From Candidatus Peribacteria bacterium RIFCSPHIGHO2_01_FULL_51_35 (GTDB lineage Bacteria; Patescibacteriota; Gracilibacteria; Peribacterales; Peribacteraceae): a DNA stretch of 64,000 nucleotides. A model generated the notes under the pieces. That model ran no database searches. It was not told the DNA's origin and was given only the letters and a program-made list of their open reading frames with translations. The stretch lies in assembly GCA_001787535.1 (NCBI GenBank), contig MFXP01000006.1, forward strand, positions 56,339 through 120,338. The letters run 5' to 3'. The translations under genes were made by a program, and so were the position numbers. Positions 7,342 to 52,814 of the stretch are shown here, in pieces (within the stretch, counting starts at the first letter, position 1; each line of letters starts with the position of its first letter).

Positions 7342-9138
7342 CTACTTCCCCGAGCGTTTCCGTTCTGTCTCGGTGAGGAATTTCTTGCGGAGACGGATGC
7401 TCTTCGGCGTGATTTCGACCAGTTCGTCGTCGTCGATGTATTCCAACGCCTGCTCCAGTGTCATCGGCTGCACGGGAGTGAGCTGGATGGCCTCGTCCGT
7501 GCCGGACGCGCGCACGTTCGTGAGCTTCTTTCCTTTGGTGAGGTTCACGACCAGATCCTGATTCTTCGCGCTCTCTCCAATGATCATGCCTTCGTACATC
7601 ACGGTTCCGGGTGTGATGAACATCTGCCCGCGTTCCTCCAGTTTCCAAATGTCGTAGGCCGTAGCCGTGCCATTCAGCATGGAGATGATGGAACCGCGCG
7701 TGCGACCGGGCATGTCGCCTTTGTACGGTTCGTACATCAGGAATGAATGTGAGAGGATTCCCTCGCCACGCGTCTCGATGACGAAATCTCCACGGAAGCC
7801 CAGAAGTCCGCGTGTCGGTGCCTTGAATTCCATACGTGTGTGCGCAGCCTCCGTTTTCATATCCACAAGTTCCCCTTTGCGGCGACTGAGCATGTCGATG
7901 ATGCCGCCGGTGCATTCTTCCGGCACGTCGATGATCACTTGTTCCATGGGTTCCTCTTTGCCGCTCGGTCCTTCACGGAAGATCACCTGCGGACGGGAAA
8001 CTTGCAATTCAAATCCCTCGCGGCGCATGGATTCGAGCAAGACAGAGAGGTGCAATTCGCCGCGTCCGGAGACTTTGTAGGAATCCGAACCGGGGATCTC
8101 TTCTACGAGAAGACCGACGTTCGTTTCTTTTTCTTTCTCCAAGCGCGCTTTGATGTGTCGCGTCGTCACGAGCTTTCCTTCCTTTCCGGCGAACGGAGAA
8201 TTATTCACGAGGAACGTCATGGAGACGGTGGGAGGATCGATGTGGATGGCGGGCAACGCGGGGGCATTTTCATCGACGGTAATGGTCTCGCCCACGTAAA
8301 TATCCGGAATGCCCGCAATGATGACGATATCCCCTGCTTCGGCCTTTGGAACTTCCAAGCGGTTGATGCCTTGGTACTGGAAAATTTTCGAAATTTTGGC
8401 CGTACGCGTCTGCTTTCCGTCGCTCTTCACGAAGACTTTATCTCCGACACCGAGCGTTCCTTCAAACACGCGCCCGACTGCGAGACGACCGAGATAGTTA
8501 TCGTAATCCAAGCTGCTCGGCTGCATGCGAAAGTTCGCAGCGGTATTCTGTTCGGCCGGCTTCACCTTTTCCAAAATAAGATCGAAAAGCGGATTCAAGT
8601 TTGTGGATGTGTCTTCCAATTTTTTCTTTGCGATGCCCTCGCGCGCGATTGTGAACAGGTATGGGAAATCGAGCTGCTGATCGTTGGCTCCCAATTTCAC
8701 GAAGAGATCGAAGACCATGTCCACCACTTTCATGGGACGCGCGGCGGGCTTGTCGATTTTATTGATGATAACGATGGGCAAGATGCCGAGTTCCAAGGAT
8801 TTCTTCAGCACGAACTTGGTCTGCGGCATGGGTCCTTCTTGTGCATCGACCAGAAGCAAAACGGAGTCGACAGTGCGCAAAATACGCTCCACTTCGGAAC
8901 CAAAATCCGCATGGCCGGGCGTATCCACGATGTTGATTTTGCAATCTTTGTAGTGAATGGATGCGTTCTTCGCGTAGATCGTGATGCCACGCTCCTTCTC
9001 CTGCACATTGCTATCCATGATCAGCTCCCCCACTTGCTCGTGTGCCGCAAACGCGCCACCCTGTTTCAAAAGGGCGTCCACGAGCGTGGTTTTGCCGTGG
9101 TCCACGTGAGCAATAATAGCGATGTTACGTATGGTCAT
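7342..9138 (-). CDS. typA: translational GTPase TypA/BipA
   Basis: Start reassigned to [22 protein letters not shown]-domain motifs DTPGHADF and NKID, followed by EF-G-like domains. Confidence 0.95.
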
Positions 9139-35652: not shown

Positions 35653-38508
35653 ATGCATCTTTGCCGCTACAACCACAAATGGACAACTCCCTATCTTCCA
35701 ACATATGAACGGCAAGATCGATTCATCAATGAAGAACATGCACGCATCCCACAGATCGTTGCGGGAATAGAAGGATGGTTGAATCCGGAAGATGCATGGA
35801 AACTCTACGAAATGGCATATTTTGCAAACGGACCGATTCTGGAAATCGGAACGTATCGAGGCAAATCCACCACAGTCCTTGCACTCGGAATCCGAGCATC
35901 CGGTCGCAAGACACGATTGATCACCATTGATCGGGACAGTGCATCTGTCTCGGCAGCAGAGAATGCCGTGCGACTGTTTGCAGGAAATGTGGATCTCCAA
36001 GCAATCAAAGGAGAAAGCACGGACATTCTTCGATCACTCAATGAATATTTTACCTTTGTGTTTGTCGATGCAGATCACAGTGCGAACGGAGCGAGAGAAG
36101 ATCTGCAGGTAGTGGATCCCCTGCTCCTGCCCGGTGGCTTCCTTCTGCTGCATGATCTGTTTGATGAGAGGAACGAACGAGAAGAAATAAAGGAATACGG
36201 CGTTCCGGAAGGAGTGTTTGAAGCACTGGGCGAAGAGTATCTCTTCTATGGACGCTTCGGCTGCACGGGGCTCTTCCGCAAGAGAGAGAAAGAATCGATG
36301 GATGCCGCGGAAGCGACTGCACTTGCCCATGTGCAGAACATTCTTCGCAAGGAACAAGTGGCGCATGCGGCAACGCGAGAGAGATTGGATCGTCTACAAC
36401 GCTCCGGGAGCTACCGCATGACCGCTTTCCTTCGCAACCTGGGGTCCTTCACAGAAAAAGTAAACGATGTTCTTCGAAAACCTCGATCACTCCGTGGAGC
36501 GAACCGAATCACTGTCATCATTCCCATCTTGAATGCGTTTGATCACATGAAACGATGCATCGAAAGCGTCTTGCTGCATACCGATCCGGCGAATGCACGG
36601 ATCCTCTTGATGGACGATGGCAGCACGGACGAACGGATCCCCGCCTTTCTTGCAGAGATCGCGACATCACATCCCGATTTCGTGAGCGTGATGCGAAACG
36701 AAAAGAATCTCGGCTTCGTCCAAACTGCAAATAAGGGGATGAAACTCGCAGCACCGGATGACGTCGTGCTCCTGAATAGCGACACGATCGTGACGCAGGA
36801 TTGGCTCACGCTTCTCAGAGAAACCGTTGCAGAAAAGCGGCACGTTGGCAGTGTCATTCCCCTCTCCAACAATGCCAGCATGTATTCCGTGCTCCACGAC
36901 AGCATTTCCGAGCATCCGCGCGACATTGATCTGGCTGCTGCGTCCGTCCGAAAGCAGAGCGGACACTACAGACCGCGCATTCCCACAAGCGTCGGCTTCT
37001 GCATGCTCATCACGCGTGATGCGCTCGAGCACGTTGGTGATTTTGATACGGCGTTCGGCCGTGGCTACGGCGAAGAGAACGACTGGTGCATGCGTGCAAC
37101 GGAAAAAGGATTCGCACATTATCTGGATGATCGCTGCTTCGTCTTTCATGCCGGAGGAGTTTCGATGCGGGCAGTTGGTCATCTCCCCGAGGGAAAGATA
37201 TCGAATCCTGCAAACGAAGCCCTGCTCGAGCAGAAACATCCGTCGTTTCGAAAAAAAGCGGATGCGTTTGCCGAAAGCAAAGTTTTGAAAAGAATTCGCC
37301 AACGCGCACTGCGATCACGAACGAGCAATCTCACAAAACCGCGAACGAAGATCGGATTTTTGCTGCACCAGCACATCGATGCTCCGGATGCAGGGGGAAC
37401 GGAATGGCATGTGCATGACCTCGTGGAAGAACTCAGGCAAACAAATGAGTGCATCGTCCTGTTTCCGAAGAAAGATCGCTTCTTGGCGCTGCGCCACGTG
37501 AATGATCTGTGTATGCGCTACGAATTCCCGCTCCTTGGAAACGGCGAAGAACGTTTGTTGGAAGCGTTTCGTCGAGCACTCACGACACTGGAGATCGATC
37601 TTCTTCATGTACATCATCTGCTTGGAATGCATGCCGGACTTCTTTCCATCCCTCGCGAAGCAGACATTCCGTTCGTCGTCACCATTCACGATCAATTCCT
37701 CTTTTCCCCGACACCGCATCCTTCTGTTTTCACGGATGACCGTCGCAACGGCTTCGAGCGAACTGTTTTCGCAACCCTGCTTCGTCCTGCGGCACGCATC
37801 ATCGCACCGTCACGATCAGCCGCACAAAATTTTGAGCAGGCGTATCCGCAATTGAATGTTCCGATCGTGCGAATCGAGCATGGAATGCACTGCCATGACC
37901 GCACGTTCTCGTCCCCTCCTCTGCATCCAACGGTCTGCTTCCTCGGCGCAACGCATTTCCCGCGCAAAGGTCGTGATGTCATTGAAAAACTCGCGGAGGG
38001 ATTGCTCGCAGAACATATCCGGATCGTTTTTGCAGGATCGACTGCTGAGGATTGGCCGACGCTCAACAGCCGTCGCAACATCCGCTTCCTCGGTCGCTAC
38101 GATCGAGCTGATGCCGTCTCACTTCTGAAAAAAGCGAATCCGAGTGTCGTGTGCATCCTCTCCATGTTTGCGGAAAGTTTCTGCTTCACGGCGTTGGAAG
38201 CACTGTGCGCAGGACTGCCGCTCTATGTCACACCGGCGGGTGCATTGCCCGAAATGATCGAACGGTCGAAGGCGGGGCGCGTGGCGACGGGGTTCGATCC
38301 CGCGATCATTCTGCCCGATCTTCTTTCGTACGTGCTATCGGATGCATGCAAGGAAGATCGCTTGAGAGCAATGATGTTCACCGTTCGATCTCGCAAGGAA
38401 ATGGCGGACGGCTACGGGGCGTTGTACGCAGAAGTTCTTGCCGAATCCGCGCATACGGCTGTCCCGAGCGAAAAAAATCCACGGGAAATTGCCCTGCAAA
38501 AAGCGTAA
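35653..38508 (+). CDS. three-domain fusion: class I SAM methyltransferase + GT2 glycosyltransferase + GT4 glycosyltransferase
   Basis: LEIGTYRGKSTTVLA...VFVDADHS (Methyltransf_24-like). ITVIIPILNAFDHMKRCIESV...LLMDDGSTD...LLNSDT (GT2). The C-terminal GT-B half carries ESFCFTALEALCAGLPLYV (E-x7-E). Confidence 0.8.
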   Translation: MHLCRYNHKWTTPYLPTYERQDRFINEEHARIPQIVAGIEGWLNPEDAWKLYEMAYFANGPILEIGTYRGKSTTVLALGIRASGRKTRLITIDRDSASVSAAENAVRLFAGNVDLQAIKGESTDILRSLNEYFTFVFVDADHSANGAREDLQVVDPLLLPGGFLLLHDLFDERNEREEIKEYGVPEGVFEALGEEYLFYGRFGCTGLFRKREKESMDAAEATALAHVQNILRKEQVAHAATRERLDRLQRSGSYRMTAFLRNLGSFTEKVNDVLRKPRSLRGANRITVIIPILNAFDHMKRCIESVLLHTDPANARILLMDDGSTDERIPAFLAEIATSHPDFVSVMRNEKNLGFVQTANKGMKLAAPDDVVLLNSDTIVTQDWLTLLRETVAEKRHVGSVIPLSNNASMYSVLHDSISEHPRDIDLAAASVRKQSGHYRPRIPTSVGFCMLITRDALEHVGDFDTAFGRGYGEENDWCMRATEKGFAHYLDDRCFVFHAGGVSMRAVGHLPEGKISNPANEALLEQKHPSFRKKADAFAESKVLKRIRQRALRSRTSNLTKPRTKIGFLLHQHIDAPDAGGTEWHVHDLVEELRQTNECIVLFPKKDRFLALRHVNDLCMRYEFPLLGNGEERLLEAFRRALTTLEIDLLHVHHLLGMHAGLLSIPREADIPFVVTIHDQFLFSPTPHPSVFTDDRRNGFERTVFATLLRPAARIIAPSRSAAQNFEQAYPQLNVPIVRIEHGMHCHDRTFSSPPLHPTVCFLGATHFPRKGRDVIEKLAEGLLAEHIRIVFAGSTAEDWPTLNSRRNIRFLGRYDRADAVSLLKKANPSVVCILSMFAESFCFTALEALCAGLPLYVTPAGALPEMIERSKAGRVATGFDPAIILPDLLSYVLSDACKEDRLRAMMFTVRSRKEMADGYGALYAEVLAESAHTAVPSEKNPREIALQKA

Positions 38509-39076: not shown

Positions 39077-39601
39077 ATGCGCACCGTTATTCTCACTGAT
39101 GAACGGGGATCTCCCATCGGGCAAGAGGAGATTGTCAAAGCGCATACGGGGGATGGCATGCTGCATAAAGCATTCTCCGTGTATGTCTTTCGCAATGCGC
39201 GCAAACAAATCTTGATCCAACGCAGGAGCACGAAAAAAATGCTCTGGCCGCACATTTGGGCGAACACTGCCTGCAGCCATCCCTTTGAGAATGAGTCGCC
39301 TATCGAAGCAGGCACGCGACGGCTGAAACAAGAAATGGGGATCACCTGCAGCCTGAAAGAAGCCGGTGACCTTGTGTACCGGGCGGAGGACCCGGAGGGA
39401 AGAGGTGTGGAACACGAACATGTCACATTGCTCGTGGGCGATGTGGATGAAACGATAGAAGTGTATTCCGACGTGGATGAAGTGGAAGAGTGGGAGTGGG
39501 TGGATGTCGAGGAACTGCAGCGCAACATGAAAGAGAACCCCGATCTGTACGCGCCTTGGTTTCACCTCGGGCTCCCGATAGTCCTTAAAAAAGCCGCATG
39601 A
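39077..39601 (+). CDS. idi: isopentenyl-diphosphate delta-isomerase, type 1 (Nudix)
   Basis: HKAFSVYVF......LIQRRS..K..WP..WANTACSHP..NES...A..RRL.QEMGI...EHE fits the IDI-1 pattern. Confidence 0.85.
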   Translation: MRTVILTDERGSPIGQEEIVKAHTGDGMLHKAFSVYVFRNARKQILIQRRSTKKMLWPHIWANTACSHPFENESPIEAGTRRLKQEMGITCSLKEAGDLVYRAEDPEGRGVEHEHVTLLVGDVDETIEVYSDVDEVEEWEWVDVEELQRNMKENPDLYAPWFHLGLPIVLKKAA

Positions 39602-40272
39602 AACATGCTCCTCTTCATCTCGCGATCATTCCGGACGGAAACCGGCGCTGGGCGAAAGCCAAAGGATTGATGCCCTGGAACGGACACGAGAAGGCAGTGG
39701 AGAATTTCCGAACGATCAGCGATTGGTGCCGACAGCACCCGAGAATCGGGATTCTGACCGTGTGGTGCTTCTCCACAGAGAACTGGAAGCGTGATCCGTT
39801 GGAAGTCCGTGCGCTCATGAAGTTGCTGGAAGATTTTTTGAAGAAGGAACAAAATGAATTGATGGAAAAGAAGACACGATTCGTTCATTCGGGACGAAAA
39901 GATCGCATTCCAAAGAGTTTGGCCAAGTTGATGGCGGACACGGAAGAAGAAACGAAGAACAATACGGACTTCACGTTGCATCTTGCCATCGACTACGGCG
40001 GAAAAGATGAAGTGGTGCGTGCAATCAAGAAGATGGAATCGAAGGATGCCACCGAAGAAGATCTGCGCGCGCATCTGGATCACCCGGAATTGCAAGACAT
40101 CGACATTATTCTTCGTTCGTCGGGCGAGTACCGCACCAGCAACTTTTTCCTGTGGCAGTCTGCGTACGCAGAATGGATCTTCAGCAAAAAATTATTCCCG
40201 GACATCGGTACGGAAGACTTGGAAGCGGCAATCCTGGAATTTGATGAGCGCAAGCGGCGTTTCGGATCATGA
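39598..40272 (+). CDS. uppS: cis-prenyltransferase (undecaprenyl diphosphate synthase family)
   Basis: HLAIIPDGNRRWAK...G...V.....W.......LTVWCFSTENWKR, RSSGEYRTSNFFLWQSAYAE. Confidence 0.9.
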   Translation: MKHAPLHLAIIPDGNRRWAKAKGLMPWNGHEKAVENFRTISDWCRQHPRIGILTVWCFSTENWKRDPLEVRALMKLLEDFLKKEQNELMEKKTRFVHSGRKDRIPKSLAKLMADTEEETKNNTDFTLHLAIDYGGKDEVVRAIKKMESKDATEEDLRAHLDHPELQDIDIILRSSGEYRTSNFFLWQSAYAEWIFSKKLFPDIGTEDLEAAILEFDERKRRFGS

Positions 40273-41105
40273 AAAAGAGTGGTTCTGTTTGCGGCAAGAT
40301 TATCCTATCCGGTGAATATGCCGTTGTCTTCGGCTATCCCGGCATCGCGACGCCTGTGAGCCTGACCATCGACGCAGAGTGGGAAGCAAAAACCTCCGGA
40401 GGGATGGAAATCCTGCTCGATGAACGCTCGGAAAGAGATGGCGCGAGAAAATACATTGAAAAAATTCTCGCTTGCCTCGGTAAACATCAGGGAATGCTGA
40501 ACATCCGGAGCACGATCCCCATTGGACGCGGGATGGGCTCCTCCACTGCGCTCGTCATTGCAATCACGCGCGCAATTCTGGGAAAAGATTCCAAGTCCGA
40601 GGCTATGAAGATCGAAGACACCATGAATCCCGGTCACAGCGGACTGGATTTCGCGGTAATTTGGGATCAAAAACCCGTTCTTTTTCGAAAAGGATTTCCT
40701 TCGGACCACATTCAGATTCCAAAAGATATTTTGAACGGCGCTTTTTTGATTGATACCGGAAAACCGAATGAGACAACGCCAGAACTTGTGGCATGGGTGA
40801 AGTCGCGGGCGGAAGAATTGAGTGAACCGCTCAAAACAATCGGCCAATGCACAGAAAAATTGATCCAAGGCGGAGATTTTCCTTCGATTGTCCACGATCA
40901 TCATCGAGCGCAGATGAAACTCGGAGTGGTTCCGGAAAACGCCACACGATTGATCCATGAAATTGAGAAAAATGACGGATCAGCAAAAGTTCTGGGTGCC
41001 GGCGGGCGCACGGCTGGAGGTGGAATGGTGCTAATTCTGGGAATCAACGCCGATGCACTGGAGAAAATCGCCGCAAAGCATAGAATGCCCTTCTTTCCGC
41101 TCTGA
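40269..41105 (+). CDS. mvk: mevalonate kinase (GHMP family, compact 278 aa)
   Basis: GKIILSGEYAVVFGYPGIA (motif I) and IPIGRGMGSSTALVIAI (GHMP motif II). ATGA overlap with uppS. Confidence 0.8.
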   Translation: MKKSGSVCGKIILSGEYAVVFGYPGIATPVSLTIDAEWEAKTSGGMEILLDERSERDGARKYIEKILACLGKHQGMLNIRSTIPIGRGMGSSTALVIAITRAILGKDSKSEAMKIEDTMNPGHSGLDFAVIWDQKPVLFRKGFPSDHIQIPKDILNGAFLIDTGKPNETTPELVAWVKSRAEELSEPLKTIGQCTEKLIQGGDFPSIVHDHHRAQMKLGVVPENATRLIHEIEKNDGSAKVLGAGGRTAGGGMVLILGINADALEKIAAKHRMPFFPL

Positions 41106-41109
41106 TTCC

Positions 41110-42117
41110 ATGTCCGTCACAGCCGTTTCCACGCCGAACATTGCCCTGATTAAGTACTGGGGCAACCGTAATAATGACCTGCGTTTGCCGATGGCGGACT
41201 CTCTTTCGATCACACTGAATCAACCGACGGTACAGATCATTGTCGACCGCGCCGAGCGCTTCACCGCACGGACGTTTGAACCCGATGGCACCGAGCGCAC
41301 ACTTACCGAGAAAGAACGAGCACGATTGGAGAAACATTTCACGCTCACGAAAACATATTTGGATGTCCTCGGACTCGCAAAAGCATTTCCAGGCTCCGTC
41401 TCCTTGGAAATCAGATCAAAAATTCCGCGAGCCATTGGCATCGCATCCTCCGCGGCGATTTTCAGCTGCCTTGCGAAAGCCTATGCAGGCCTTGTGGGAG
41501 AGAATCGATCATTCACGATGCAGGAAAAAAGCGTGATCGGCAGGCTGGGCTCCGGTTCCGCTGCACGCAGCCTAGCAGGAGGTTTTGTTGCGTTGCATGC
41601 AGGCACGGGAAATGACATCGACAGTGCTGCTGCAGAGCAGATAGCCGATGAAAACCACTGGAATCTGTTCGACGTGATCATTATCCCAAGTGCGGAAGAG
41701 AAAAAAGTTGGCTCCACCGAAGGTCACACGCTGGCACACACCAGTCCCCTCTTTTCAAAACGCATTGATACGATCCCGCGTCGCCAGCAGGAGTGTATTG
41801 ATGCCATTCTAAAGAAAGATTTTGAAAAACTGCAGCATGTGACGGAAGAAGATGCGCTGGATATGCACAACGTCATGCAGACGCAGACGCCACCGCTCAA
41901 ATACCTGAGCAATGAAACATATCGCATGATGGAAGAAGTGGAAGAACTGCGGGACACGGAACACTTGGAAGTTCTGTATACGATGGATGCCGGTCCCACT
42001 GTGCATTTGATTTGCACGGAGGCAGCTCTGCCAAAGATTCGGGCATACGCCAAGGAACAGAAAGGATGCACGCTATTTGAAGCGGGAGTAGGAAATGGAA
42101 GCCATCTCCTGGATTGA
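41110..42117 (+). CDS. mvaD: mevalonate (di)phosphate decarboxylase family (MvaD-like)
   Basis: Start reassigned to MSVTAVSTPNIALIKYWGNRNN. SSAAIFSCLA, GSGSAARS and YTMDAGPTVHL are typical motifs. Confidence 0.85.
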   Translation: MSVTAVSTPNIALIKYWGNRNNDLRLPMADSLSITLNQPTVQIIVDRAERFTARTFEPDGTERTLTEKERARLEKHFTLTKTYLDVLGLAKAFPGSVSLEIRSKIPRAIGIASSAAIFSCLAKAYAGLVGENRSFTMQEKSVIGRLGSGSAARSLAGGFVALHAGTGNDIDSAAAEQIADENHWNLFDVIIIPSAEEKKVGSTEGHTLAHTSPLFSKRIDTIPRRQQECIDAILKKDFEKLQHVTEEDALDMHNVMQTQTPPLKYLSNETYRMMEEVEELRDTEHLEVLYTMDAGPTVHLICTEAALPKIRAYAKEQKGCTLFEAGVGNGSHLLD

Positions 42118-42185: not shown

Positions 42186-42548
42186 TTACACTATTTTCTT
42201 AGAACATACTGAAAGAATTTTCTCGAGCACATCTGATGAATATTTCACTTGATCGTTTGTGAATCTTAGAATGGTAAAACCCAAGCCTTCCAGTTTTTGA
42301 TCACGAACCCAATCTGATTGGATGTTTGTTTTTCTTGTATGACCGCTGCCATCTATTTCCACGATGACCTTCTTCTCGAGACATGCAAAATCAACAACAT
42401 AGGAACCAATGGGAACTTGCCGCCGGAATTTCAACCCATGAAATCTTTTTGCCCGTAAATCATGCCATAAGATCTTTTCGCTCGGAGTCATCATTCTTCG
42501 AAGATATCGAGCTTTTCCTTTCGAACCCCACAGGTCAGAAATACGCAT
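42186..42548 (-). CDS. DUF559 endonuclease-domain protein (Vsr-like fold family)
   Basis: MTPSEKILWHDLRAKRFHGLKFRRQVPIGSYVVDFACLEKKVIVEIDGSGH...DQKLEGLGFTILRF matches the DUF559 signature. Confidence 0.85.
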   Translation of the reverse strand: MRISDLWGSKGKARYLRRMMTPSEKILWHDLRAKRFHGLKFRRQVPIGSYVVDFACLEKKVIVEIDGSGHTRKTNIQSDWVRDQKLEGLGFTILRFTNDQVKYSSDVLEKILSVCSKKIV

Positions 42549-42614
42549 AGAAAGAAATTGTAAGGAATACTCCTATCATCTGTCGAATGTCTTAAAGCAA
42601 GGAACAATGGCGTT

Positions 42615-42648
42615 CCCTCCCCCTGTAGGGGGAGGGACAGGGAGGGGG
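42615..42648. repeat. CCCTCCCCCT-type palindromic repeat, right flank of DUF559 cassette
   Basis: ccctccccctgtagggggagggacagggaggggg. Confidence 0.75.
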
Positions 42649-42675
42649 TTAAAAAGTCCGCTATACTTCCTGCCC

Positions 42676-43866
42676 ATGGACTTACGAAATTTCAGCCAAA
42701 ATCTCGAACCATTTATGCGCGTGGAGGAACGTCGTAAGCGGATCGAAAGCGAACTCGGCGTCGATCTTTCTCTACTTTCGATAGAAGAAAAGAAGATCGG
42801 ACAGGCTGATGAGAAAAATTGTGAGCAAATGTTCGGCGCGGTTCCTATCCCTGTCGGTCTTGCAGGACCACTGACAATCCATTTTAGTTCCGGTGAAGTC
42901 CAGGAGGTGTATCTGCCACTGGCTACGACGGAAGGAGCGTTGATTGCGAGCGTGAATCGCGGATGCAAAGCGCTTTCCCAAGCGGGCGGCGTGCATGTGA
43001 AGTCCGAGTACAAAGGAATCACACGATCGATTGCGTTTGAAGTACAAAGTACAAAGTGCGAAGTGCGAAGGAAAGAGATTGAGGAGCTTGAAAGCGAGTG
43101 GAAAAAATTTGCGGAAGCAACGAGCGATCATTTGAAAGTTTTATCCTATGAAATCGATGCGAAGGATGATTTTCTCTTCTTAACAATCGCAGCCGATACC
43201 GACGAAGCCATGGGTATGAACATGATTACGATTGCCGCCGATGCAGTGGGACATTTTCTTTCCGAGAAGCTCGGCATTCCCCTTATAACAATTGCAGCAA
43301 ATGTAGACAGCGACAAAAAACCAAGTGAGCGGACGAAAAAGCTCGGCCGAGGCTACGATGTGCGTGCCGAAGCAACGCTCACGGAAGAAGTTCTGCAATC
43401 AGTTCTAAGGGCAGATGCCGCAGCCATGCTGAAAACAGCGCATGCAAAGCTGGAGATTGGATCTTCCATTGCAGGATCACTGGGAAAGAATCTCCACGCC
43501 GCGAACATCGTCGCTGCGTTGTACCTTGCAATGGGGCAGGATGCTGCGCACGTGGTGGAAGGGTCGCTCACCGATACACGCGTTGAAATCGTAGGGGCAC
43601 GGCATGCCGTGCCCCTACAACCGTTGCGTGTATCGGTTCATTGCCCCGCCATCCTTGTTGGCGTTCGCGGTGGCGGCACGGCACTGCCTGCCCAAAAACA
43701 ATGCTTGGATCTCTTGCTCAAAAACCGCACATCGCTGCATCCATCCAAGCAACTTGCGGAAAGTATCGGTGCTGCTGTCCTTGCGGGAGAAGTCTCTCTT
43801 TTAGCCGCACAAGCGACGAATACTTTGGCGGAGTCGCACAAAAAACATGCTCGGAAGGATCATTGA
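42676..43866 (+). CDS. HMG-CoA reductase (class I/archaeal-like catalytic domain, no membrane anchor)
   Basis: Start reassigned to MDLRNF. ENCEQMFGAVPIPVGLAGPL, LPLATTEGALIASVNRGCKA, DAMGMNMIT and a C-terminal HKKH-like segment. Confidence 0.85.
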   Translation: MDLRNFSQNLEPFMRVEERRKRIESELGVDLSLLSIEEKKIGQADEKNCEQMFGAVPIPVGLAGPLTIHFSSGEVQEVYLPLATTEGALIASVNRGCKALSQAGGVHVKSEYKGITRSIAFEVQSTKCEVRRKEIEELESEWKKFAEATSDHLKVLSYEIDAKDDFLFLTIAADTDEAMGMNMITIAADAVGHFLSEKLGIPLITIAANVDSDKKPSERTKKLGRGYDVRAEATLTEEVLQSVLRADAAAMLKTAHAKLEIGSSIAGSLGKNLHAANIVAALYLAMGQDAAHVVEGSLTDTRVEIVGARHAVPLQPLRVSVHCPAILVGVRGGGTALPAQKQCLDLLLKNRTSLHPSKQLAESIGAAVLAGEVSLLAAQATNTLAESHKKHARKDH

Positions 43867-43920: not shown

Positions 43921-44955
43921 ATGGCATCTTCCGCCATTGTCGGTTTCGGCATGTATCTGCCGAAGTATCGTATCCGCACGGCGGAGATCGCAGCACACTG
44001 GGGGGAAGACCCCGCAGGGCTCATGGCGAACTTGGGCGTCGAAGAAAAAACAGTGCCGGGAAAAGATGAAGACAGTTTCACGCTGGGGTTCGAAGCAGGA
44101 AAGATGGCGATCGAAAATGCAGGCATCAAGGCTTCCCAAATTTCTGCAATCTTTGTGGGATCCGAATCGCATCCGTATGCCGTAAAGCCGACGAGCGGAA
44201 TGCTGGCGGCTGCACTAGAGTTGGATCCTTTCTGTCATGCCGCAGATTTGGAATTCGCCTGCAAGGCAGGCACGGCTGCCATGCAAATTGGGGATGCATT
44301 CGTACGTAGCGGCCAAGTAAACTTCGCCATGGCGATGGGAACGGACACGGCGCAGGGAAAACCCGGCGATGCACTGGAGTACACGGCTGCCGCCGGTGCT
44401 GCTGCGGTGATCCTTTGCACAGCCACGGCAAAGAACGCGCTCTGCAAGATTGATCACACCTTATCTTTCACCACGGACACGCCGGATTTCTGGCGCGCTG
44501 CCGATGAAAAATATCCCAGACACGCGGGACGTTTTACAGGCGAGCCGGGATACTTCCACCACATGCGGGAAGCCATCAAAGGAATTCTGGAAATTGGGAA
44601 CATCAAGATGAAGGAGATCGATCACGTGATATTGCACATGCCGAACGCCAAGTTCCCTCTGCGCATCGCGAAAGAATGCGGCATCAGTAAGGAACAACTT
44701 GATCACGGCTTCATTGTTCCGACCGTCGGTAACACGTACAGCGCGTGTTCCCTCCTGGGTCTGACAAACGTGTTGCAGAAGGCAAAAAAAGGAGAAAGAA
44801 TCCTGCTGGTCTCCTACGGTTCCGGCGCAGGCTGCGACGCTTTCCTCTGCACGATGCTCAAAAACGGCGCGGGTCTGCCTCCGGACACGCGCGCAATCTC
44901 GTACTTGCCGTACAGTACGTATCTGGAACACTCGGGTGCACTGGCGGCAAAATAA
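43921..44955 (+). CDS. HMG-CoA synthase, archaeal-type (thiolase-fold condensing enzyme)
   Basis: IVGFGMYLPKYRI...EDSFTLG..A...A......I.AIFVGSESHPYAVKP, ACKAGTAAM (active-site Cys context), HMPNAKF, GNTYSAS-like. Confidence 0.8.
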   Translation: MASSAIVGFGMYLPKYRIRTAEIAAHWGEDPAGLMANLGVEEKTVPGKDEDSFTLGFEAGKMAIENAGIKASQISAIFVGSESHPYAVKPTSGMLAAALELDPFCHAADLEFACKAGTAAMQIGDAFVRSGQVNFAMAMGTDTAQGKPGDALEYTAAAGAAAVILCTATAKNALCKIDHTLSFTTDTPDFWRAADEKYPRHAGRFTGEPGYFHHMREAIKGILEIGNIKMKEIDHVILHMPNAKFPLRIAKECGISKEQLDHGFIVPTVGNTYSACSLLGLTNVLQKAKKGERILLVSYGSGAGCDAFLCTMLKNGAGLPPDTRAISYLPYSTYLEHSGALAAK

Positions 44956-44960
44956 TCTTC

Positions 44961-46091
44961 ATGGAAAAAGACATTTTCCTCGTCGGCCAGGGACTTACGC
45001 GTTTTGGTGAACACTGGGATAGGAGTCTGCTCAACCTGATGGATGAAGCGACAGAAGCGGCACTAAAGAACTCCGGGCTCAATGCACTGGATGTTGATCT
45101 GGTGATTGTCGCGAACATGCTTGGCGAACGCACGAATAACCAAGCGCACCTTGGTGCTCTCGCATCCGCATTGTTGCCGCATCACCCGCCTGCGCTGCGC
45201 ATAGAATCCGCGTGCGGATCGGGCGCGATGGCGCTGCACACTGCAGCCGCATATTTGGAGAGCAAACGCGCGGAAACAGTTCTTGTGATCGGCGTGGAAA
45301 AAATGACGGATGTCTCGGTGGATGAAGTGAGTGCAGCATTGATGGGAGCCGCGGACAGCGAGCTGGATGCTCCGTCGGGACTGACATTCCCGGGCATCTT
45401 TGGATTGATCACACAACGCTACATGCATGAGTACGGCCTGACACGCGAGCAACTGAGTTTGGTGAGCGCGGTGCATCACAGACAGGGCAAAGAAAATCCG
45501 TTCGCACAGTTCCGGTTCGATGTGAGTCCGGAAAAAGTGACGGCCAGTCCCATGGTTGCGGATCCTCTGCGGTTGCTGGATTGTTCTCCTGTCAGCGATG
45601 GCGCAGCCGTCTGCATCCTATCCACAACACACAGAAGCGAACTTCGCTTGGCAGCCAGCCAAATTGCGAGTGACTCGGTGAGCATCACGGAGCGTGCTTC
45701 CATCACAAGCTTCTCTGCCACACGCGACGCCATGCAACGTGCACTGAAAGAAGCAGAGATTGATCGTGAAGAGATCCGCGCACTGGAAACCCATGACTGC
45801 TTCTCTATGGCAGCCATTATCAATATGGAAGACCTTGGCTTTGCGGAGCCCGGTGAAGGAATCAGCGTCTACGAACGCATTCACGCAGGAGATTACCCAA
45901 CGTTCGTGAATAAGAGCGGTGGTTTGAAATCCTGTGGCCATCCTGTCGCCGCAACGGGCATCAAGCAAATGATCGATATTGCAAAGCAACTCGGCGCTTC
46001 CAAAGAGCAGTATGGCCTTGCGCACAATTTCGGTGGGGCATGCGCCAGCTGCGGTATCCATATATTGGAAAATTTAGATGCTTCCTCATGA
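44961..46091 (+). CDS. acetyl-CoA acetyltransferase (archaeal-type thiolase)
   Basis: MEKDIFLVGQGLTRFGEHW, ESACGSGAMAL (catalytic Cys), ETHDCFS, GHPVAATGI and GGACASCGIHIL. Confidence 0.85.
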   Translation: MEKDIFLVGQGLTRFGEHWDRSLLNLMDEATEAALKNSGLNALDVDLVIVANMLGERTNNQAHLGALASALLPHHPPALRIESACGSGAMALHTAAAYLESKRAETVLVIGVEKMTDVSVDEVSAALMGAADSELDAPSGLTFPGIFGLITQRYMHEYGLTREQLSLVSAVHHRQGKENPFAQFRFDVSPEKVTASPMVADPLRLLDCSPVSDGAAVCILSTTHRSELRLAASQIASDSVSITERASITSFSATRDAMQRALKEAEIDREEIRALETHDCFSMAAIINMEDLGFAEPGEGISVYERIHAGDYPTFVNKSGGLKSCGHPVAATGIKQMIDIAKQLGASKEQYGLAHNFGGACASCGIHILENLDASS

Positions 46092-46189: not shown

Positions 46190-47104
46190 ATGTCTTCTCC
46201 TTCGATTATCCATCGGGCACAAAAAAAAAGGGCATCCAAGCTCCAGGCAGGCACCGTCCTCTCCTTTACTGTCCTCGCGCATCCTCCTGCGCGTTTTGGC
46301 AAAAGGCCCCGGCAGATCGGGTTGATCCAATTGGAGGACGGCAGCAGCGTGCTGGCTCCGCTCTTGGCCGAACGCCCATTCATAGGACAACGGGTTCACG
46401 CACGCATGCGCCTGTCCCATGTGACGGAAGAGAAGCTGCGCGTCTACGAAGTGAGTTACGAAGCGCTCTCGGAAGTCCCTGCCATCATGGAAAAGACCTT
46501 CCCGGGGTACATCCTCGCGCTCACGGGTCCGTCCGGCGTTGGCAAAACAACCGTCAGCCGCATGCTGGTGCAAATGTTCTCCGATGTCGCCGTCAATGTT
46601 CCGATTGTGACGACACGGAAGGAGAAACCCGGTGATGAAGGAGAATATGTGTATGCCCCCACCACAGAGTTCGACGAATGGAAGCGCGGAGGCTTGCTGG
46701 TGGCTGCTACGGATATCCCTTCGCGCGGCGAACATCGTCAGTACGGCTACCGCCGAGCGGATTTCGAAGCCATTTGGAAGGAGGGAAAATTGCCAGTCGT
46801 GATCACAGAGATGCATCTTCTCAAAGATCTAGCGAATACGTTCGGCCGAAGATCGATCCTTTCGTTCGGGTTGCTGCCTCCCGGCAAGAGCAAGCGCGCC
46901 AAGCTCTCGCAGCTGCTACATCGCTTACGCAAGCGCGGCCGCGAAACGGAAGCGCACATTCAAGATCGTTTGAAGAATGCGGAGAGAGACCTGGCGTTCT
47001 TCAAGGAGCGTTCGGATCTGTTTGATCACGTCGTCGTTAACAAAGACTTGAATGTTGTCATCCGCAGCATGCAGAAGCGCATCCCGGGACTTTCGCAGGC
47101 CTGA
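46190..47104 (+). CDS. fusion protein: DUF35-type OB-fold domain (N) + guanylate-kinase-like P-loop NMP kinase domain (C)
   Basis: N-terminal GTVLSFTVLAHPPARFGKRPRQIGLIQLEDGSSVLAPLLAERPFIGQRVHARMRL fits the DUF35 C-terminal OB pattern. The C-terminal half has LTGPSGVGKTT (P-loop) and VTTRKEKPGDEGEYVY...QYGY (Gmk-like). Confidence 0.75.
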   Translation: MSSPSIIHRAQKKRASKLQAGTVLSFTVLAHPPARFGKRPRQIGLIQLEDGSSVLAPLLAERPFIGQRVHARMRLSHVTEEKLRVYEVSYEALSEVPAIMEKTFPGYILALTGPSGVGKTTVSRMLVQMFSDVAVNVPIVTTRKEKPGDEGEYVYAPTTEFDEWKRGGLLVAATDIPSRGEHRQYGYRRADFEAIWKEGKLPVVITEMHLLKDLANTFGRRSILSFGLLPPGKSKRAKLSQLLHRLRKRGRETEAHIQDRLKNAERDLAFFKERSDLFDHVVVNKDLNVVIRSMQKRIPGLSQA

Positions 47105-47107
47105 AGT

Positions 47108-47680
47108 ATGGCACTCATCCTTGCTTCAGCCAGTCCGCAACGCAAAACCCTTCTTCGGGGAATCGGCGTTTCCTTTCAAGCGATCCCAAGTTCTATTGAT
47201 GAAAATGCCTGCGACGAAAAAGATCCGGGCAAACGTGCGGAAACATTGGCACTTTTGAAAGCACGCGATGTGAAAACATCACACCCCAATGATTGGATCC
47301 TCGGCTGCGACACGCTGGTGGAAGCCCATGATGGCTCGGTCTTGGAAAAGCCGGCAGATGCTGCTGATGCGCGAAGAATGATCGCACTACAGAGCGGCAA
47401 AACATCAAAAGTCCATTCTGCCATCGCATTGATCGCTCCTGCCGGAAAAGAATATGTCGGCCTTTCCACCTCGCACGTCCGTTTCGCTACGCTTGATACA
47501 AAGACGATCGATGCATGGATCGAACAAGGATTCTGGGAAGACCGTTCGGGGGCCTTTCAAATCGACGGCCCCGGACAGTTATTGATCGAGCATCTGGAAG
47601 GAGACTGGACAGGGGTCGTGGGGCTGCCGGTTTTCCTCTTCGGACAGCTGTATCGCAAAGCGGGCTTGGCCATCACGTAA
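47108..47680 (+). CDS. maf: Maf-like nucleoside triphosphate pyrophosphatase
   Basis: LILASASPQRKTLL, GCDTLV and GAFQIDG motifs. Confidence 0.9.
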   Translation: MALILASASPQRKTLLRGIGVSFQAIPSSIDENACDEKDPGKRAETLALLKARDVKTSHPNDWILGCDTLVEAHDGSVLEKPADAADARRMIALQSGKTSKVHSAIALIAPAGKEYVGLSTSHVRFATLDTKTIDAWIEQGFWEDRSGAFQIDGPGQLLIEHLEGDWTGVVGLPVFLFGQLYRKAGLAIT

Positions 47681-49969: not shown

Positions 49970-50633
49970 CTACCGGCAGAGCCGGTAGTATGAGGAAAGC
50001 CCCTGGAAGGGGCTAAGTAGGAATGCATACTACCGATGGCTCTGCTTCTTAATTCCAGTACAGATCAAGTTGTGGACCGTCGAAGAATTGATCGTTCTTC
50101 CATTGGTCTTGGATGTATTTGCGGATGGCATCGGGATCTTGACCGACGGTGCTCACGAAGTATCCGCGAGACCAGAAGGATTTTTGGGGACCTCCTTGCT
50201 TGCGCTTGGAACACTGCTGATGGATGCGGATAGCGCTTTTCCCTTTGAGGAATCCCATGACATGGGCGACGCTGTATTTGGGCGGGATGGAGAGGAGGAG
50301 ATGAATGTGGTCGGGGCAGGCATTTCCTTCGAGCACTTCGGTTTCCTTCTGCTTGCTAAGCTCTCGAATGATTTTGCCAACCTGGACACGCACAGCTCCG
50401 TACAGGATTTTTTTGCGGTACTTTGGTACAATCACGATGTGGTACTTACAGTTCCATATCGTGTGGCTCTGTGATTAGAAAGAACACATGTGTTGAGACA
50501 GGGAATGCTCCTTCGCTGGGACTTTCCCTGTACCAAAGTACCGTATGCCAATGCCGGGACGGTGGAACCTGGCGGCGTCTCACCGGCGGAGCCGGTGGTT
50601 TCCAAATAGGGAATGACCAAGATGGTTTGGCTA
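49970..50633 (-). mobile_element. IS200/IS605-family insertion sequence (about 660 bp, boundaries approximate)
   Basis: A single Y1-transposase gene with similar subterminal hairpins in direct orientation: ctaccggcagagccggtag (49970-49988) and caccggcggagccggtgg (50581-50598). Confidence 0.75.
50049..50435 (-). CDS. tnpA: IS200-type Y1 (HUH) transposase TnpA, apparently lacking a canonical start
   Basis: PKYRKKILYG, PDHIHLLLSIPPKYSVAHVMGFLKGKSA (HUH) and FWSRGYFVSTVG (catalytic Tyr). The frame stays open upstream (SQSHTIWNCKYHIV) to a TAA at 50475-50477, with no ATG and only the GTG at 50435. Confidence 0.85.
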   Translation of the reverse strand: MIVPKYRKKILYGAVRVQVGKIIRELSKQKETEVLEGNACPDHIHLLLSIPPKYSVAHVMGFLKGKSAIRIHQQCSKRKQGGPQKSFWSRGYFVSTVGQDPDAIRKYIQDQWKNDQFFDGPQLDLYWN

Positions 50634-51651: not shown

Positions 51652-52752
51652 TTACAGATCCAAAAGAACGGCTGCAATCCAAGGAAATGCGACCGTCACA
51701 TCGCTCTGAATGATCTGGTAGTAACTTGCCGTGCTCAGCTTGTCCCACGTGATCTTCTCTTTGCCGCCTGCGCCCGAGTACGAGCCGTAGGACATGGGGG
51801 AAGAACCTATTTCCACGAAGCCTGCCCAATCACGAACCCCCTGATAAAGCAGGTCGTGCTTAAGGGACGGGACGATGCAGATGGGGAAATCGGCGGCGAT
51901 ACCTCCACCCAGCTGGAGGAATGCGATGGGAGCATCTTTGGACTCTTCCATGTACCAGTCGTATAAAGAAGTGAAGTACTCCAATCCGCTCTTCATGACT
52001 GTGGGGCTCACCATTTTGCCGTCTTTGCCCTTATATTTCCCGACGTACGTGTAGCTCGCGAAGATGTTGCCCGTGGTTGAATCCTCGAAGCCCGGGATGA
52101 CGATGGGAATATTTTTCTCGTACGCAGCATACGTCCAACTGTCGTTGGGATTTGCGTTCGGATCCGGCCGGATCAATTTCTCCGCGTACAAACGGCGGAA
52201 GTACTCATGCGGAAAGTAGCGCTCCCCTTTCTTCTCCGCATCCTTCCACATTTTGAGGAGAAGCGGCTCCATAATGCGCACGCTCTCGTCTTCAGGCAAA
52301 AACGTATCCGTGATGCGGCGGAGCCCCGCATCACGCAGTTCCGCTTCCTGCTCGGGTGTGAGCTCGGTGTAGCGCGGAATATATGCGTAGTGCGAGTGCG
52401 CGACATAGCGGTAGTACGATTCTTCGTGGTTCGCTCCCGTGGCGGAGATCAGGTGCACTTTTCCCTTGCGAATGAGTTCCGCCAGCGTCACGCCGATTTG
52501 GAACGAGCTGAGCGCCCCTGCGATAGTGACGACCAGCTTGCCGCCGTTATCCAAGTGCTGTTTCAGCCACAGCGCAGCCTGCAGGGTTGCTCCGCCGTTG
52601 CAGTGCCTGAGGGCACGCTCCGCGAAGGTGGAAACCGGTGTCTTACTTTTCTGCACGTCCTGCGACACCGATTGTGTTCCGGTAACGCCGGGCGCTTCCT
52701 CCACGATGTACTTCTTGAGTCCCGCCGATAGCTGATCGAATTTCTTCCTCAT
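51652..52752 (-). CDS. deoxyhypusine synthase-like (DHS/homospermidine synthase-like) protein
   Basis: Start at ATG 52752. VTIAGALSSFQIGV, ISATGANHEES and FLQLGGGIAADFPI fit the DHS family. Confidence 0.75.
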   Translation of the reverse strand: MRKKFDQLSAGLKKYIVEEAPGVTGTQSVSQDVQKSKTPVSTFAERALRHCNGGATLQAALWLKQHLDNGGKLVVTIAGALSSFQIGVTLAELIRKGKVHLISATGANHEESYYRYVAHSHYAYIPRYTELTPEQEAELRDAGLRRITDTFLPEDESVRIMEPLLLKMWKDAEKKGERYFPHEYFRRLYAEKLIRPDPNANPNDSWTYAAYEKNIPIVIPGFEDSTTGNIFASYTYVGKYKGKDGKMVSPTVMKSGLEYFTSLYDWYMEESKDAPIAFLQLGGGIAADFPICIVPSLKHDLLYQGVRDWAGFVEIGSSPMSYGSYSGAGGKEKITWDKLSTASYYQIIQSDVTVAFPWIAAVLLDL

Positions 52753-52814
52753 CGAGAATGTATCGTACACAGTTTCACAACGTGATCAATCCTTTGTGGT
52801 ACACTTTTGCATCC

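Follow-up and report, generated by a model that had tools for sequence, protein, structure and literature searches.

In archaea, acetoacetyl-CoA thiolase and HMG-CoA synthase (HMGS) form a complex with a DUF35 scaffold protein (2018, PDB 6ESQ and 6ET9; PhlB and MucC are related), and the corresponding genes occur in the order HMGS-thiolase-DUF35. Our literature search gave a single DUF35 fusion, that of HMGS with DUF35 in Pseudomonas fluorescens. The protein studied here consists of a DUF35-type OB domain followed by a domain that resembles guanylate kinase (Gmk); its initial annotation knew of no described fusion of this kind, and our search of the published literature found none either.

At the other end of the mevalonate (MVA) pathway, isopentenyl phosphate kinase (IPK, EC 2.7.4.26), an enzyme that has an amino-acid-kinase (AAK) fold, acts after a mevalonate kinase (MVK) and a phosphomevalonate decarboxylase (PMD) in the alternate pathway found in haloarchaea and Chloroflexi. 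In the CPR, AAK-type IPK is mostly confined to Microgenomates, and synteny between IPK and isopentenyl-diphosphate isomerase (IDI) is seen where other MVA genes are missing (Hoshino & Gaucher). The authors of the Peribacter genome describe its mevalonate pathway as 'near-complete', the conversion of mevalonate-5-phosphate into mevalonate-5-diphosphate being unaccounted for.

The locus that we analysed belongs to a stretch of 64,000 nucleotides (hereafter the window) from Candidatus Peribacteria bacterium RIFCSPHIGHO2_01_FULL_51_35. Its relevant genes and domains are the following:

39077..39601, + strand: type 1 isopentenyl-diphosphate isomerase (IDI, Nudix); NF002995 156.9 bits (cut-off 127), TIGR02150 121.3 (105.8)
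39598..40272, + strand: undecaprenyl diphosphate synthase (UPPS, a cis-prenyltransferase), a consumer of isopentenyl diphosphate (IPP); PF01255, E 2.7e-68
40269..41105, + strand: divergent mevalonate-kinase-like GHMP kinase ('G278'); TIGR00549 94 bits, under the cut-off
41110..42117, + strand: GHMP-family decarboxylase with PMD determinants; best PDB match 6n0x
42607..43866, + strand: HMG-CoA reductase (HMGR); PF00368, E 6e-91
43921..44955, + strand: archaeal-type HMGS; NF003274 426.8 bits (cut-off 244), TIGR00748 394 (353)
44961..46091, + strand: archaeal-type acetoacetyl-CoA thiolase, presumed partner of the OB domain; NF004720 363 bits, NF053570 (Methanothermococcus-type acetyl-CoA acetyltransferase) 330 bits
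46190-47104, + strand: 304-aa fusion of a DUF35-type OB domain, a linker and a Gmk-fold kinase
46247..46465, + strand: OB-fold domain of the DUF35/ChsH2 C-terminal type, residues 20-92
46466..46501, + strand: flexible linker, residues 93-104
46502..47101, + strand: guanylate-kinase-fold P-loop kinase domain, residues 105-304
46526..46552, + strand: Walker A / P-loop GPSGVGKTT, residues 113-121

The fusion gene, 46190-47104 (+), has the maximum length that its frame allows, the ATG being the first start past the upstream stop, and it lies directly behind the HMGS and thiolase genes (43921-44955 and 44961-46091), as the initial annotation had noted. The two domains proposed there are recovered by Pfam above the gathering scores: PF01796 (OB_ChsH2_C/DUF35) matches residues 20-73 (E 2.4e-8, 34.2 bits for a gathering score of 27.1) and PF00625 (Guanylate_kin) matches residues 110-296 (E 7.4e-9, 36 bits for 25.2). 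The P-loop and the Gmk-like block that had been pointed out could both be located, at residues 113-121 and 137-155 (VPIVTTRKEKPGDEGEYVY), respectively. The AF2 model of the fusion has a mean pLDDT of 83.7, which drops below 50 in linker residues 96-101, where the alignment columns are poorly conserved.

In this model, the OB domain is a barrel of five beta-strands, and a short helix (residues 5-17) occupies the usual site of the rubredoxin-like zinc ribbon. There is no cysteine in residues 1-20 and no Pfam match to DUF35_N, nor is there any cysteine in the N termini of the 30 homologues that we looked at; the absence of the zinc ribbon had escaped the initial annotation. When the OB domain is searched alone against the PDB as a single sequence, it gives a marginal match to residues 51-93 of 6esq_E (E 0.42). 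An OB domain of the OB_ChsH2_C type is common to the fusion and to the DUF35 protein of the archaeal complex, and the fusion locus matches the archaeal gene order; unlike the archaeal protein, the fusion ends in a C-terminal kinase of 200 aa. Based on this homology and on the invariant gene order, we propose that the zinc-ribbon-less DUF35 OB module would dock on the archaeal-type thiolase/HMGS pair encoded upstream. That a kinase is joined to a DUF35 scaffold suggests that the two ends of the pathway are physically linked.

The kinase domain matches the fold of Gmk/GUK1 (PF00625, TIGR03263; yeast 1GKY, mouse 1LVG, human 6NUI) over its whole length: hhalign aligns it to canonical Gmk with a probability of 100% (E 6e-48), and Foldseek returns TM scores of 0.83-0.87 with closed, GMP-bound Gmk structures. 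The domain shares with Gmk the P-loop, the arginines of the LID and the binding residues for the acceptor phosphate (R38, Y50 and Y78), R41 being present as a lysine. No variation is seen in 43-113 family members at residues G113, P114, S115, G116, V117, G118, K119 and T121, and K119, R143 (R38), Y153 (Y50), Y185 (Y78) and the LID arginines R245, R249 and R260 are at least 99% conserved among 113 members. On the contrary, the residues that read guanine are replaced throughout the family. We compared the same 113 members with 76 canonical Gmks: Ser34 (yeast numbering) becomes Ile139 in 99% of the family, Glu69 becomes Ala or Ser172 in 100% (Ala172 in the window protein) and Ser/Thr80 becomes Tyr187 in 100%, whereas the canonical enzymes have S/T (96%), E (88%) and S/T (87%) at these positions. 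Also unlike Gmk, the domain carries two insertions: one of 4 residues at the tip of a hairpin (S178, E181), adjoining a new invariant arginine, R183, and another of 6 residues behind LLPP (S234, K235, R236).

The initial annotation had suspected a changed acceptor pocket, in which the Glu of LEHAEV, the Thr of YGT and the Asp of DIDWQG are not conserved. The proper alignment confirms that the GMP-binding residues of Gmk are not all intact: the Glu is found in none of the 113 members and the Thr is a tyrosine in all of them. The Asp is indeed replaced, by Glu207, but this change is conservative and has no diagnostic value, because 13 of the 76 canonical Gmks also carry Glu there. The kinase thus retains its ATP site and the residues for the acceptor phosphate, whereas the polar guanine readers are replaced and two conserved loops are added. 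From these observed changes, we infer that a small phosphomonoester other than a nucleotide is its most likely substrate.

Should the protein be merely a second guanylate kinase, fused by chance to a DUF35 domain? Its fold, the Pfam and KEGG assignments and the name 'guanylate kinase' used in several sources would say so, but we consider this highly improbable. All three guanine-specific residues are replaced across the family, the association with isoprenoid genes is seen in every context examined, and the score with the Gmk equivalog TIGR03263 (73.9 bits) is less than half of the cut-off (160.45); the OB fusion and the location in an isoprenoid operon also distinguish the protein from canonical Gmk. 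The initial annotation had proposed that the genome be searched for a separate gmk, PMK or IPK. No second gmk is present within the 64-kb window, and no canonical gmk was found in the window and about 1.2 Mb of related loci taken together. The complete genome of Ca. Peribacter riflensis, however, encodes a separate, canonical gmk of 200 aa (K00942, 157.7 bits), which coexists with the operon-linked fusion of 312 aa. Judged by its sequence, the kinase is a diverged paralogue and not the housekeeping Gmk, because of this separate gmk and because family members score far above canonical Gmks: 135-272 bits against the window kinase domain (17 cluster representatives, E<=1e-30), compared to ~50-65 bits for canonical Gmk-length proteins.

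As for the other two kinases, neither phosphomevalonate kinase (PMK, K00938) nor IPK (K06981) is annotated in the complete genome of Ca. Peribacter riflensis. A search of the entire 64-kb window gave neither a GHMP-type PMK nor a protein of the AAK fold, so that the absence of a GHMP PMK and of an AAK-fold IPK, first noted for the operon, extends to the whole stretch. In the related loci, about 1.2 Mb in total, no IPK-like AAK protein was found either, and the sole AAK-fold protein there is a canonical ArgB (locus L101). The GEY motif of G278 might designate this protein as the PMK; this is disfavoured, since G278 has kept the catalytic Asp (LIDTG) that is missing from PMK, and its best PDB matches are MVKs.

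Which kinase step is missing depends on the decarboxylase. The operon decarboxylase scores 171.6 bits against 6n0x, the PMD from Anaerolinea thermophila, and at most 130.6 bits against classical diphosphomevalonate decarboxylases (MDDs). The determinants of PMD were derived from the sequences of 6n0x and 6n0z and from Dellas 2013. The operon enzyme shows Asn (in KYWGNR) and His (in GSTEGH), like wild-type 6n0x; the variant 6n0z differs from 6n0x at both residues, which are Lys and Met in classical MDDs. The Asn/Arg pattern agrees with the MPD row of Table 4 in Dellas 2013, and the PMD-type signature recurs in all related operons; it was seen in 23 distinct related loci. A decarboxylase with these determinants would produce isopentenyl phosphate (IP), and the missing enzyme would then be an IP kinase. 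The gap is thus probably the conversion of IP into IPP and not the phosphomevalonate kinase step. The proposal of a missing kinase, made in the initial annotation, holds as regards the existence of a gap; its choice of the phosphomevalonate step is probably wrong, considering the PMD-like decarboxylase. It is fair to add that the same annotation named IPK among the absent enzymes and wrote 'or related', so that its idea is refined rather than overturned.

The alternative is that the Gmk-like domain is the PMK, which would convert mevalonate-5-phosphate into mevalonate-5-diphosphate, the decarboxylase then acting on the diphosphate. The chemistry is of the same class (a phosphate acceptor, EC 2.7.4.x), the acceptor-phosphate residues are kept, and the new invariant arginines R183 and R236 could just as well hold a carboxylate, that of mevalonate-5-phosphate. 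TIGR01240 (diphosphomevalonate decarboxylase) recognizes the operon decarboxylase with 197.5 bits, above the cut-off of 171, and the step is exactly the one that the Peribacter authors list as unaccounted for. There is a precedent: the animal-type PMK (PF04275) is an enzyme of the NMP-kinase fold which acts on a phosphomonoester in the mevalonate pathway. For the fusion, Pfam finds neither a GHMP nor a PF04275 match at E<=0.01 and, unlike the setting of the animal enzyme, the operon decarboxylase points to a pathway that can do without PMK, since it most resembles a characterised PMD and has Asn and His where 6n0z and the classical MDDs have Lys and Met. Besides, the replacements in the pocket (Ile, Ala, Tyr) are hydrophobic, which favours an isopentenyl tail over a hydroxy-acid. 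We regard the PMK assignment as distinctly unlikely, also in view of the related loci.

The search for homologues gave 451 matches, almost all from Candidatus Peregrinibacteria; nearly all of the best 120 of these 451 are ~303-307 aa long and have both domains. Related loci were collected by a C-terminal alignment search of metagenome contigs, full-length alignment on genome contigs giving three Peribacteria loci. Of 47 distinct related loci whose upstream sequence is long enough, 43 have the fusion gene immediately 3' of the thiolase gene.

In four loci (L106, L110, L116 and L164), a block of 5.6 kb encoding MVK, PMD, HMGR, HMGS, thiolase and the OB domain is gone, and UPPS, the kinase and IDI are retained. 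A second deletion, independently arranged, is seen in L172, where the order is IDI-UPPS-kinase-Crp. The loss of MVA genes is seen here at the scale of loci of 4-20 kb, which reach no further than 10 kb from the kinase in each direction. The catalytic motifs are intact in these deletion variants, and dN/dS values of 0.08-0.17 indicate that the kinase is under purifying selection. That the kinase persists beside IDI and UPPS argues against the PMK assignment, because a PMK would be useless where MVK and the decarboxylase have been lost. Other standalone members of the clade (for example L169, L170 and the P0348 contig, which additionally encodes a polyprenyl synthase) are at most two genes away from UPPS. 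The standalone kinases thereby mirror the AAK-fold IPKs of the CPR, whose genes are reported to be syntenic with IDI where other MVA genes are lacking.

The loci L005/L006 depart from the common arrangement. Their Gmk-like domain has lost the P-loop Lys and the LID Arg, the decarboxylase is swapped for a different one (MDD5, with KYWGRK), and an MVK-like kinase without the catalytic Asp (G323), which is PMK-like, is present. This speaks for the IP-kinase role, in that the Gmk-like kinase would have become dispensable in this one lineage. We rejected the assignment of G323 as a plain PMK, since its HMM score says MVK, and re-read it as PMK-like based on the change of the catalytic Asp to Tyr. 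Nor is MDD5 a clear DMD: overall, it is closest to the PMD from A. thermophila (300 bits), and the sole pointer to the use of a diphosphate is the Asn to Arg change. If MDD5 is still a PMD, the L005/L006 lineage is left with no visible IP kinase, its Gmk-like domain being degenerate. The loss of kinase residues alongside the gain of a PMK-like GHMP kinase would also fit a Gmk-like domain acting as PMK. However, wherever the PMK-like kinase has been gained, the decarboxylase has also been swapped, a change that would have been unnecessary if a PMK step had already existed. A strict pattern, in which an intact kinase goes without the extra GHMP kinase and a degenerate one goes with it, does not hold: complementarity is not strict because L093 and L098 combine the swapped decarboxylase/GHMP kinase cassette with an intact Gmk-like kinase.

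It may also be that the kinase step is performed elsewhere, the Gmk-like domain being structural or regulatory, in the manner of the GK-like domains of MAGUK proteins (catalytically dead and protein-binding), or being a kinase of an unrelated phosphomonoester. Peribacter gene 544 (RIFOXYC2_FULL_PER-ii_58_32_544) encodes an orphan AAK-fold protein of 437 aa (K00930, 76.9 bits), unaccompanied by other arginine genes, which could be a divergent conventional IPK. In addition, a minority of fusion lineages resemble the MAGUK domains in that they lack the P-loop Lys and the LID Arg. The motifs are clearly degenerate in P0127, P0134, P0138, P0130 and P0126, where the domain and the HMGS-thiolase-fusion order are kept, which suggests that the domain has a value beyond catalysis; the contigs of P0134, P0138, P0126 and P0130 stop short of the lower-pathway genes. 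Three standalone members are coupled with a histidine-phosphatase gene. On the other side, the window protein and about 95% of its relatives retain every catalytic residue, unlike MAGUK GK domains, and the conservation (at least 99% in 113 members) of the P-loop, the LID arginines and the phosphate-binding residues argues for catalysis. Two independent deletion lineages keep the kinase without the OB domain, the thiolase and HMGS, always beside UPPS and IDI, and IPK homologues among the CPR are reported to be mostly limited to Microgenomates. We consider it rather unlikely that the step is performed elsewhere.

The explanation that we favour, by a little more than an even chance, is that the Gmk-like domain catalyses the last step, from IP to IPP, after the MVK-like kinase and the PMD, the OB domain docking on thiolase and HMGS; the assignment as IP kinase draws on genomic context and on the logic of the residues. 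The MVK-like GHMP kinase would convert mevalonate into mevalonate-5-phosphate, which the PMD-like decarboxylase would convert into IP; the Gmk-like domain would then phosphorylate IP with ATP, and the resulting IPP would feed IDI and UPPS. The domain would be a functional analogue of the AAK-fold IPK, with which it would share a putative reaction and a position after MVK and PMD. As a P-loop kinase, it is outside the AAK-fold IPK family: the folds are entirely different and there is no homology.

If this is true, the pathway variant used here is MVK, PMD and then an IP kinase, in place of the classical route, and there is a second, fold-unrelated solution to the isopentenyl phosphate kinase reaction, by a fold that is not known for this activity. 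It would be a case of non-orthologous displacement, in which a nucleotide kinase has been retooled for an isoprenoid phosphate and the trail of residues can still be read, and a single assembly would unite the last enzyme of the pathway with the first two. A compact P-loop IP kinase could also be of use in engineered isoprenol or IP-bypass routes. The database names 'Guanylate kinase' and 'OB-fold domain-containing protein' are misleading with regard to this evidence.

The published gap in the mevalonate pathway, which is called 'near-complete' in Peregrinibacteria and 'potential' in the CPR, may be closed, and the fusion gene is a concrete candidate for doing so. We suggest, with slightly less than even confidence, that Peregrinibacteria and their pathway-depleted relatives make IPP by means of a Gmk-derived P-loop enzyme, mostly tethered to thiolase/HMGS by the OB domain, and that the standalone form beside IDI and UPPS is a salvage kinase for isoprenoid phosphates in reduced symbionts. 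The deletion variants suggest a way in which ultra-small symbionts could continue to produce undecaprenyl carriers out of precursors that they scavenge.

The gene at 46190-47104 (forward strand) encodes a 304-residue protein in which, as proposed in the initial annotation, a DUF35-type OB domain is indeed fused to a guanylate kinase (Gmk)-like P-loop kinase. Both domains score above the Pfam gathering thresholds, the OB domain (OB_ChsH2_C/DUF35) at residues 20-73 (E 2.4e-8) and the guanylate-kinase domain at residues 110-296 (E 7.4e-9). In the AlphaFold2 model (from 43 homologues, mean pLDDT 83.7), a short helix is followed by a barrel of five strands (residues 20-92), the linker is disordered (pLDDT below 50 at residues 96-101), and the kinase domain that makes up the remainder is an alpha/beta fold modelled with confidence; the best Foldseek matches in the PDB are all guanylate kinases (TM 0.83-0.87 to closed GMP-bound forms, 20-28% identity). 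The N terminus contains no cysteines, so that the rubredoxin-like zinc ribbon known from DUF35 proteins is missing.

The fusion is the last gene of the mevalonate (MVA) operon, which comprises:

39077-39601, forward: type 1 isopentenyl-diphosphate isomerase (IDI)
39598-40272, forward: undecaprenyl diphosphate synthase (UPPS)
40269-41105, forward: divergent GHMP kinase resembling mevalonate kinase (MVK)
41110-42117, forward: GHMP decarboxylase
42186-42548, reverse: DUF559 endonuclease-like gene in the decarboxylase/HMGR interval (PF04480, 126 bits)
42607-43866, forward: HMG-CoA reductase (HMGR)
43921-44955, forward: archaeal-type HMG-CoA synthase (HMGS)
44961-46091, forward: archaeal-type thiolase
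46190-47104, forward: the fusion

The DUF559 gene is absent from the relatives examined; Ca. Peribacter riflensis has a minus-strand HAD hydrolase one gene earlier. Maf (47108-47680, forward) lies directly 3' of the fusion, while in most relatives the fusion is followed by glycogen-type genes (GT5-like synthase, GH57, GH15) and Maf lies at a distance of 8-10 kb on the opposite strand; the glycogen-type block was either lost from the window or never there. An IS200-like Y1 transposase (50049-50435, reverse; PF01797, 114 bits) has counterparts directly upstream of HMGS at an operon break in the related locus L173, and on the contig of the family protein P0348. A 951-residue methyltransferase, GT2 and GT4 glycosyltransferase fusion (35653-38508, forward) and a deoxyhypusine-synthase-like gene (51652-52770, reverse) are unrelated to the kinase.

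A search of 5.8 billion proteins gave 451 relatives of the fusion. The best 120 of these 451 are nearly all 303-307 residues long with both domains, carry generic database names ('OB-fold domain-containing protein', 'hypothetical' or 'guanylate kinase') and, where labelled with an organism, come almost all from Candidatus Peregrinibacteria or Peribacteraceae. Synteny between the window and Ca. Peribacter riflensis takes in the tRNA cluster, ClpC, S1 and the MVA operon, and the order IDI-UPPS-MVK-decarboxylase-HMGR-HMGS-thiolase-fusion recurs on 1.03-Mb and 1.17-Mb contigs. Of 78 distinct related loci, 47 extend far enough upstream to be judged, and in 43 of those the fusion comes directly 3' of the thiolase.

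The kinase domain of the fusion is not the housekeeping Gmk. It scores 73.9 bits against the guanylate-kinase equivalog TIGR03263 (NCBIfam), whose cut-off is 160. The gene table published for the complete genome of Peribacter lists the same MVA operon, ending in a 312-residue 'gmk' (gene 643; K00942, 103.7 bits), and a separate gmk, such as the initial annotation proposed to look for, is listed there as well (gene 213; 200 residues, 157.7 bits). An exhaustive HMMER scan, with the kinase domain as query, delineates a discrete clade of 17 representatives (50%-identity clusters) at E<=1e-30 (135-272 bits), below which are a few weaker matches, mostly fragmentary or divergent; canonical proteins of Gmk length reach only about 50-65 bits.

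To map residues, the family profile was aligned with that of canonical Gmks (probability 100%, E 6e-48; yeast Guk1 numbering), and residues were counted in 113 family members and 76 canonical Gmks. At least 99% of family members retain the P-loop Lys, R38, Y50, Y78 and LID arginines, and 83% have Lys in place of R41. The residues that read the guanine base in canonical Gmks, S/T34 (96%), E69 (88%) and S/T80 (87%), are replaced by Ile139 (99%), Ala/Ser172 (never Glu) and Tyr187 (100%), respectively. The family also has a four-residue insertion at the hairpin tip (S178, E181), adjoining a new invariant R183, and a six-residue insertion after LLPP that bears the invariant R236. Of the three guanine contacts that the initial annotation considered lost, the Glu of LEHAEV (Ala172) and the Thr of YGT (Tyr187) are thus gone family-wide; the Asp of DIDWQG (D100) is also replaced, by Glu207, but this is not diagnostic of a changed substrate since some canonical Gmks have the same Glu. 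The residues exclude that the domain is simply a second Gmk. This residue pattern suggests that the domain still moves phosphate from ATP to a phosphomonoester, that the group on this phosphate is probably no longer guanosine, and that the acceptor pocket may have become more hydrophobic.

The authors of the Peribacter genome described the pathway as 'near-complete', with genes leading to mevalonate and mevalonate-5-phosphate, and from mevalonate-5-diphosphate on. The gene table contains no phosphomevalonate kinase (PMK, K00938), isopentenyl phosphate (IP) kinase (IPK, K06981) or third GHMP kinase, and the 64-kb window contains no second Gmk, further GHMP kinase or protein with an amino-acid-kinase (AAK) fold. 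The decarboxylase is the key to which step is missing. Its best PDB match is 6n0x (171.6 bits), classical diphosphomevalonate decarboxylases (MDDs) scoring at most 130.6. We regard 6n0x as the phosphomevalonate decarboxylase (PMD) from Anaerolinea thermophila in Thomas et al. 2019, a work considered here as cited in PMC9254496. In alignments, wild-type 6n0x has the motifs KYWGNR and GSTQGH, the deposited variant 6n0z has KYWGKR and GSTQGM, and the mouse, human and Arabidopsis MDDs have KYWGKR and GST.GM; the window decarboxylase has KYWGNR and GSTEGH. At the positions of Table 4 of Dellas et al. 2013, where MDDs have Lys21 and Ile27 and phosphomevalonate decarboxylases a non-Lys and Arg, it has Asn and Arg. 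Every decarboxylase of this type in related operons (23 distinct loci, each with one or more of the determinants readable) bears the PMD-type signature. The catalytic Asp of true MVKs is present in the MVK-like kinase (LIDTG); the PMK of S. pneumoniae has Trp at this position. Because the decarboxylase has the PMD signature and the MVK-like kinase its catalytic Asp, the most economical pathway is one in which MVK and then PMD would produce IP, and a final IP kinase would be needed.

Such a kinase could be a conventional one encoded elsewhere in the genome, and this is the main alternative. Peribacter has an orphan 437-residue AAK-fold protein (RIFOXYC2_FULL_PER-ii_58_32_544; K00930, 76.9 bits), weakly annotated as argB, and its gene table shows no other arginine-pathway genes; it is possible that this protein is a divergent IPK, or something else entirely. 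Among CPR bacteria, conventional AAK-fold IPKs are reported to occur mostly in Microgenomates (Hoshino & Gaucher).

Deletion variants bear on the function of the fused kinase. In four loci from several species (L106, L110, L116 and L164; 68-73% nucleotide identity), a standalone kinase without OB domain sits between a UPPS gene in divergent orientation and a bona fide IDI gene (L110 and L116 show this IDI, which NCBIfam confirms for L110, 202 bits vs a cut-off of 127). In a blastn comparison with L089, which has the complete operon, the match covers UPPS and the kinase domain, and the 5.6 kb between them (MVK, PMD, HMGR, HMGS, thiolase and OB domain) are replaced by a 127-nt gap; the 235-residue standalone product P0277 still carries, at its start, what is left of the last OB strand. 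Locus L172 (MscS on the reverse strand, IDI, UPPS, kinase, Crp), whose flanks match complete Peregrinibacteria operons, is an independent deletion in the other operon layout. The absence of MVA genes was judged on loci of 4-20 kb, with at most 10 kb on either side of the kinase. The kinases of both deletions have all catalytic motifs intact and a dN/dS of 0.08-0.17. More distant standalone members have UPPS within two genes in three further contigs, one of which also has a trans-prenyl synthase. Keeping the kinase beside IDI and UPPS after MVK and the decarboxylase are lost makes sense for the conversion of IP to IPP, and none for a PMK; it parallels the synteny of AAK-fold IPK with IDI described in CPR bacteria that have no other MVA genes (Hoshino & Gaucher).

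Some standalone kinases (L169:5073-6187, L170:719-1953 and the P0348 contig) overlap a histidine-phosphatase (His_Phos_1) gene at its 3' end; these pairs adjoin UPPS and, in one case, also a trans-prenyl synthase. L106, which has no MVA genes, encodes a lycopene-cyclase-domain protein beside UPPS (8209-8985, forward; PF18916).

L005/L006 and L093/L098 carry, in place of the PMD-type decarboxylase, another one, MDD5 (KYWGRK), always accompanied by an additional GHMP kinase, G323:

L005, 5237-6208, reverse: G323
L093, 3893-4912, forward: G323

G323 scores as a mevalonate kinase (TIGR00549, 215 bits, above the equivalog cut-off; 149 bits against archaeal MVK structures), and has Tyr in the catalytic-Asp column (VIGYTG vs the usual xDTG), which is reminiscent of the Trp of PMK. 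Judging from this motif, G323 may be a PMK recently evolved from MVK, which automatic annotation would mislabel. In L005/L006, the P-loop Lys, Y153 and LID arginines have disappeared from the Gmk-like domain; the domain is intact in L093/L098. This is suggestive of a switch to a route with PMK and diphosphomevalonate decarboxylase that relaxes selection on the IP kinase, in one degenerate lineage, the contigs of the other degenerate fusions stopping short of the lower-pathway genes. MDD5 is overall even closer to the A. thermophila PMD (300 bits) than the window decarboxylase is, and, if it were still a PMD, this lineage would possibly be a counter-argument to the IP-kinase reading. The order HMGS-thiolase-fusion persists with a dead kinase, which shows that the fusion also has a role other than catalysis, presumably as a scaffold.

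The initial annotation saw in this domain the missing phosphomevalonate (or related) kinase. The gap in the pathway stands, now probably as that of an IP kinase, but the PMK step is made less likely by the signature of the decarboxylase, by the retention of the kinase after the deletions and by the joint exchange of kinase and decarboxylase. Full-text searches found no description of a DUF35-Gmk fusion or of a P-loop IP kinase. The family is best viewed as a subfamily of the Gmk superfamily whose substrate is predicted to be new, joined to DUF35 in a new kind of fusion; we infer that it probably functions as the IP kinase.
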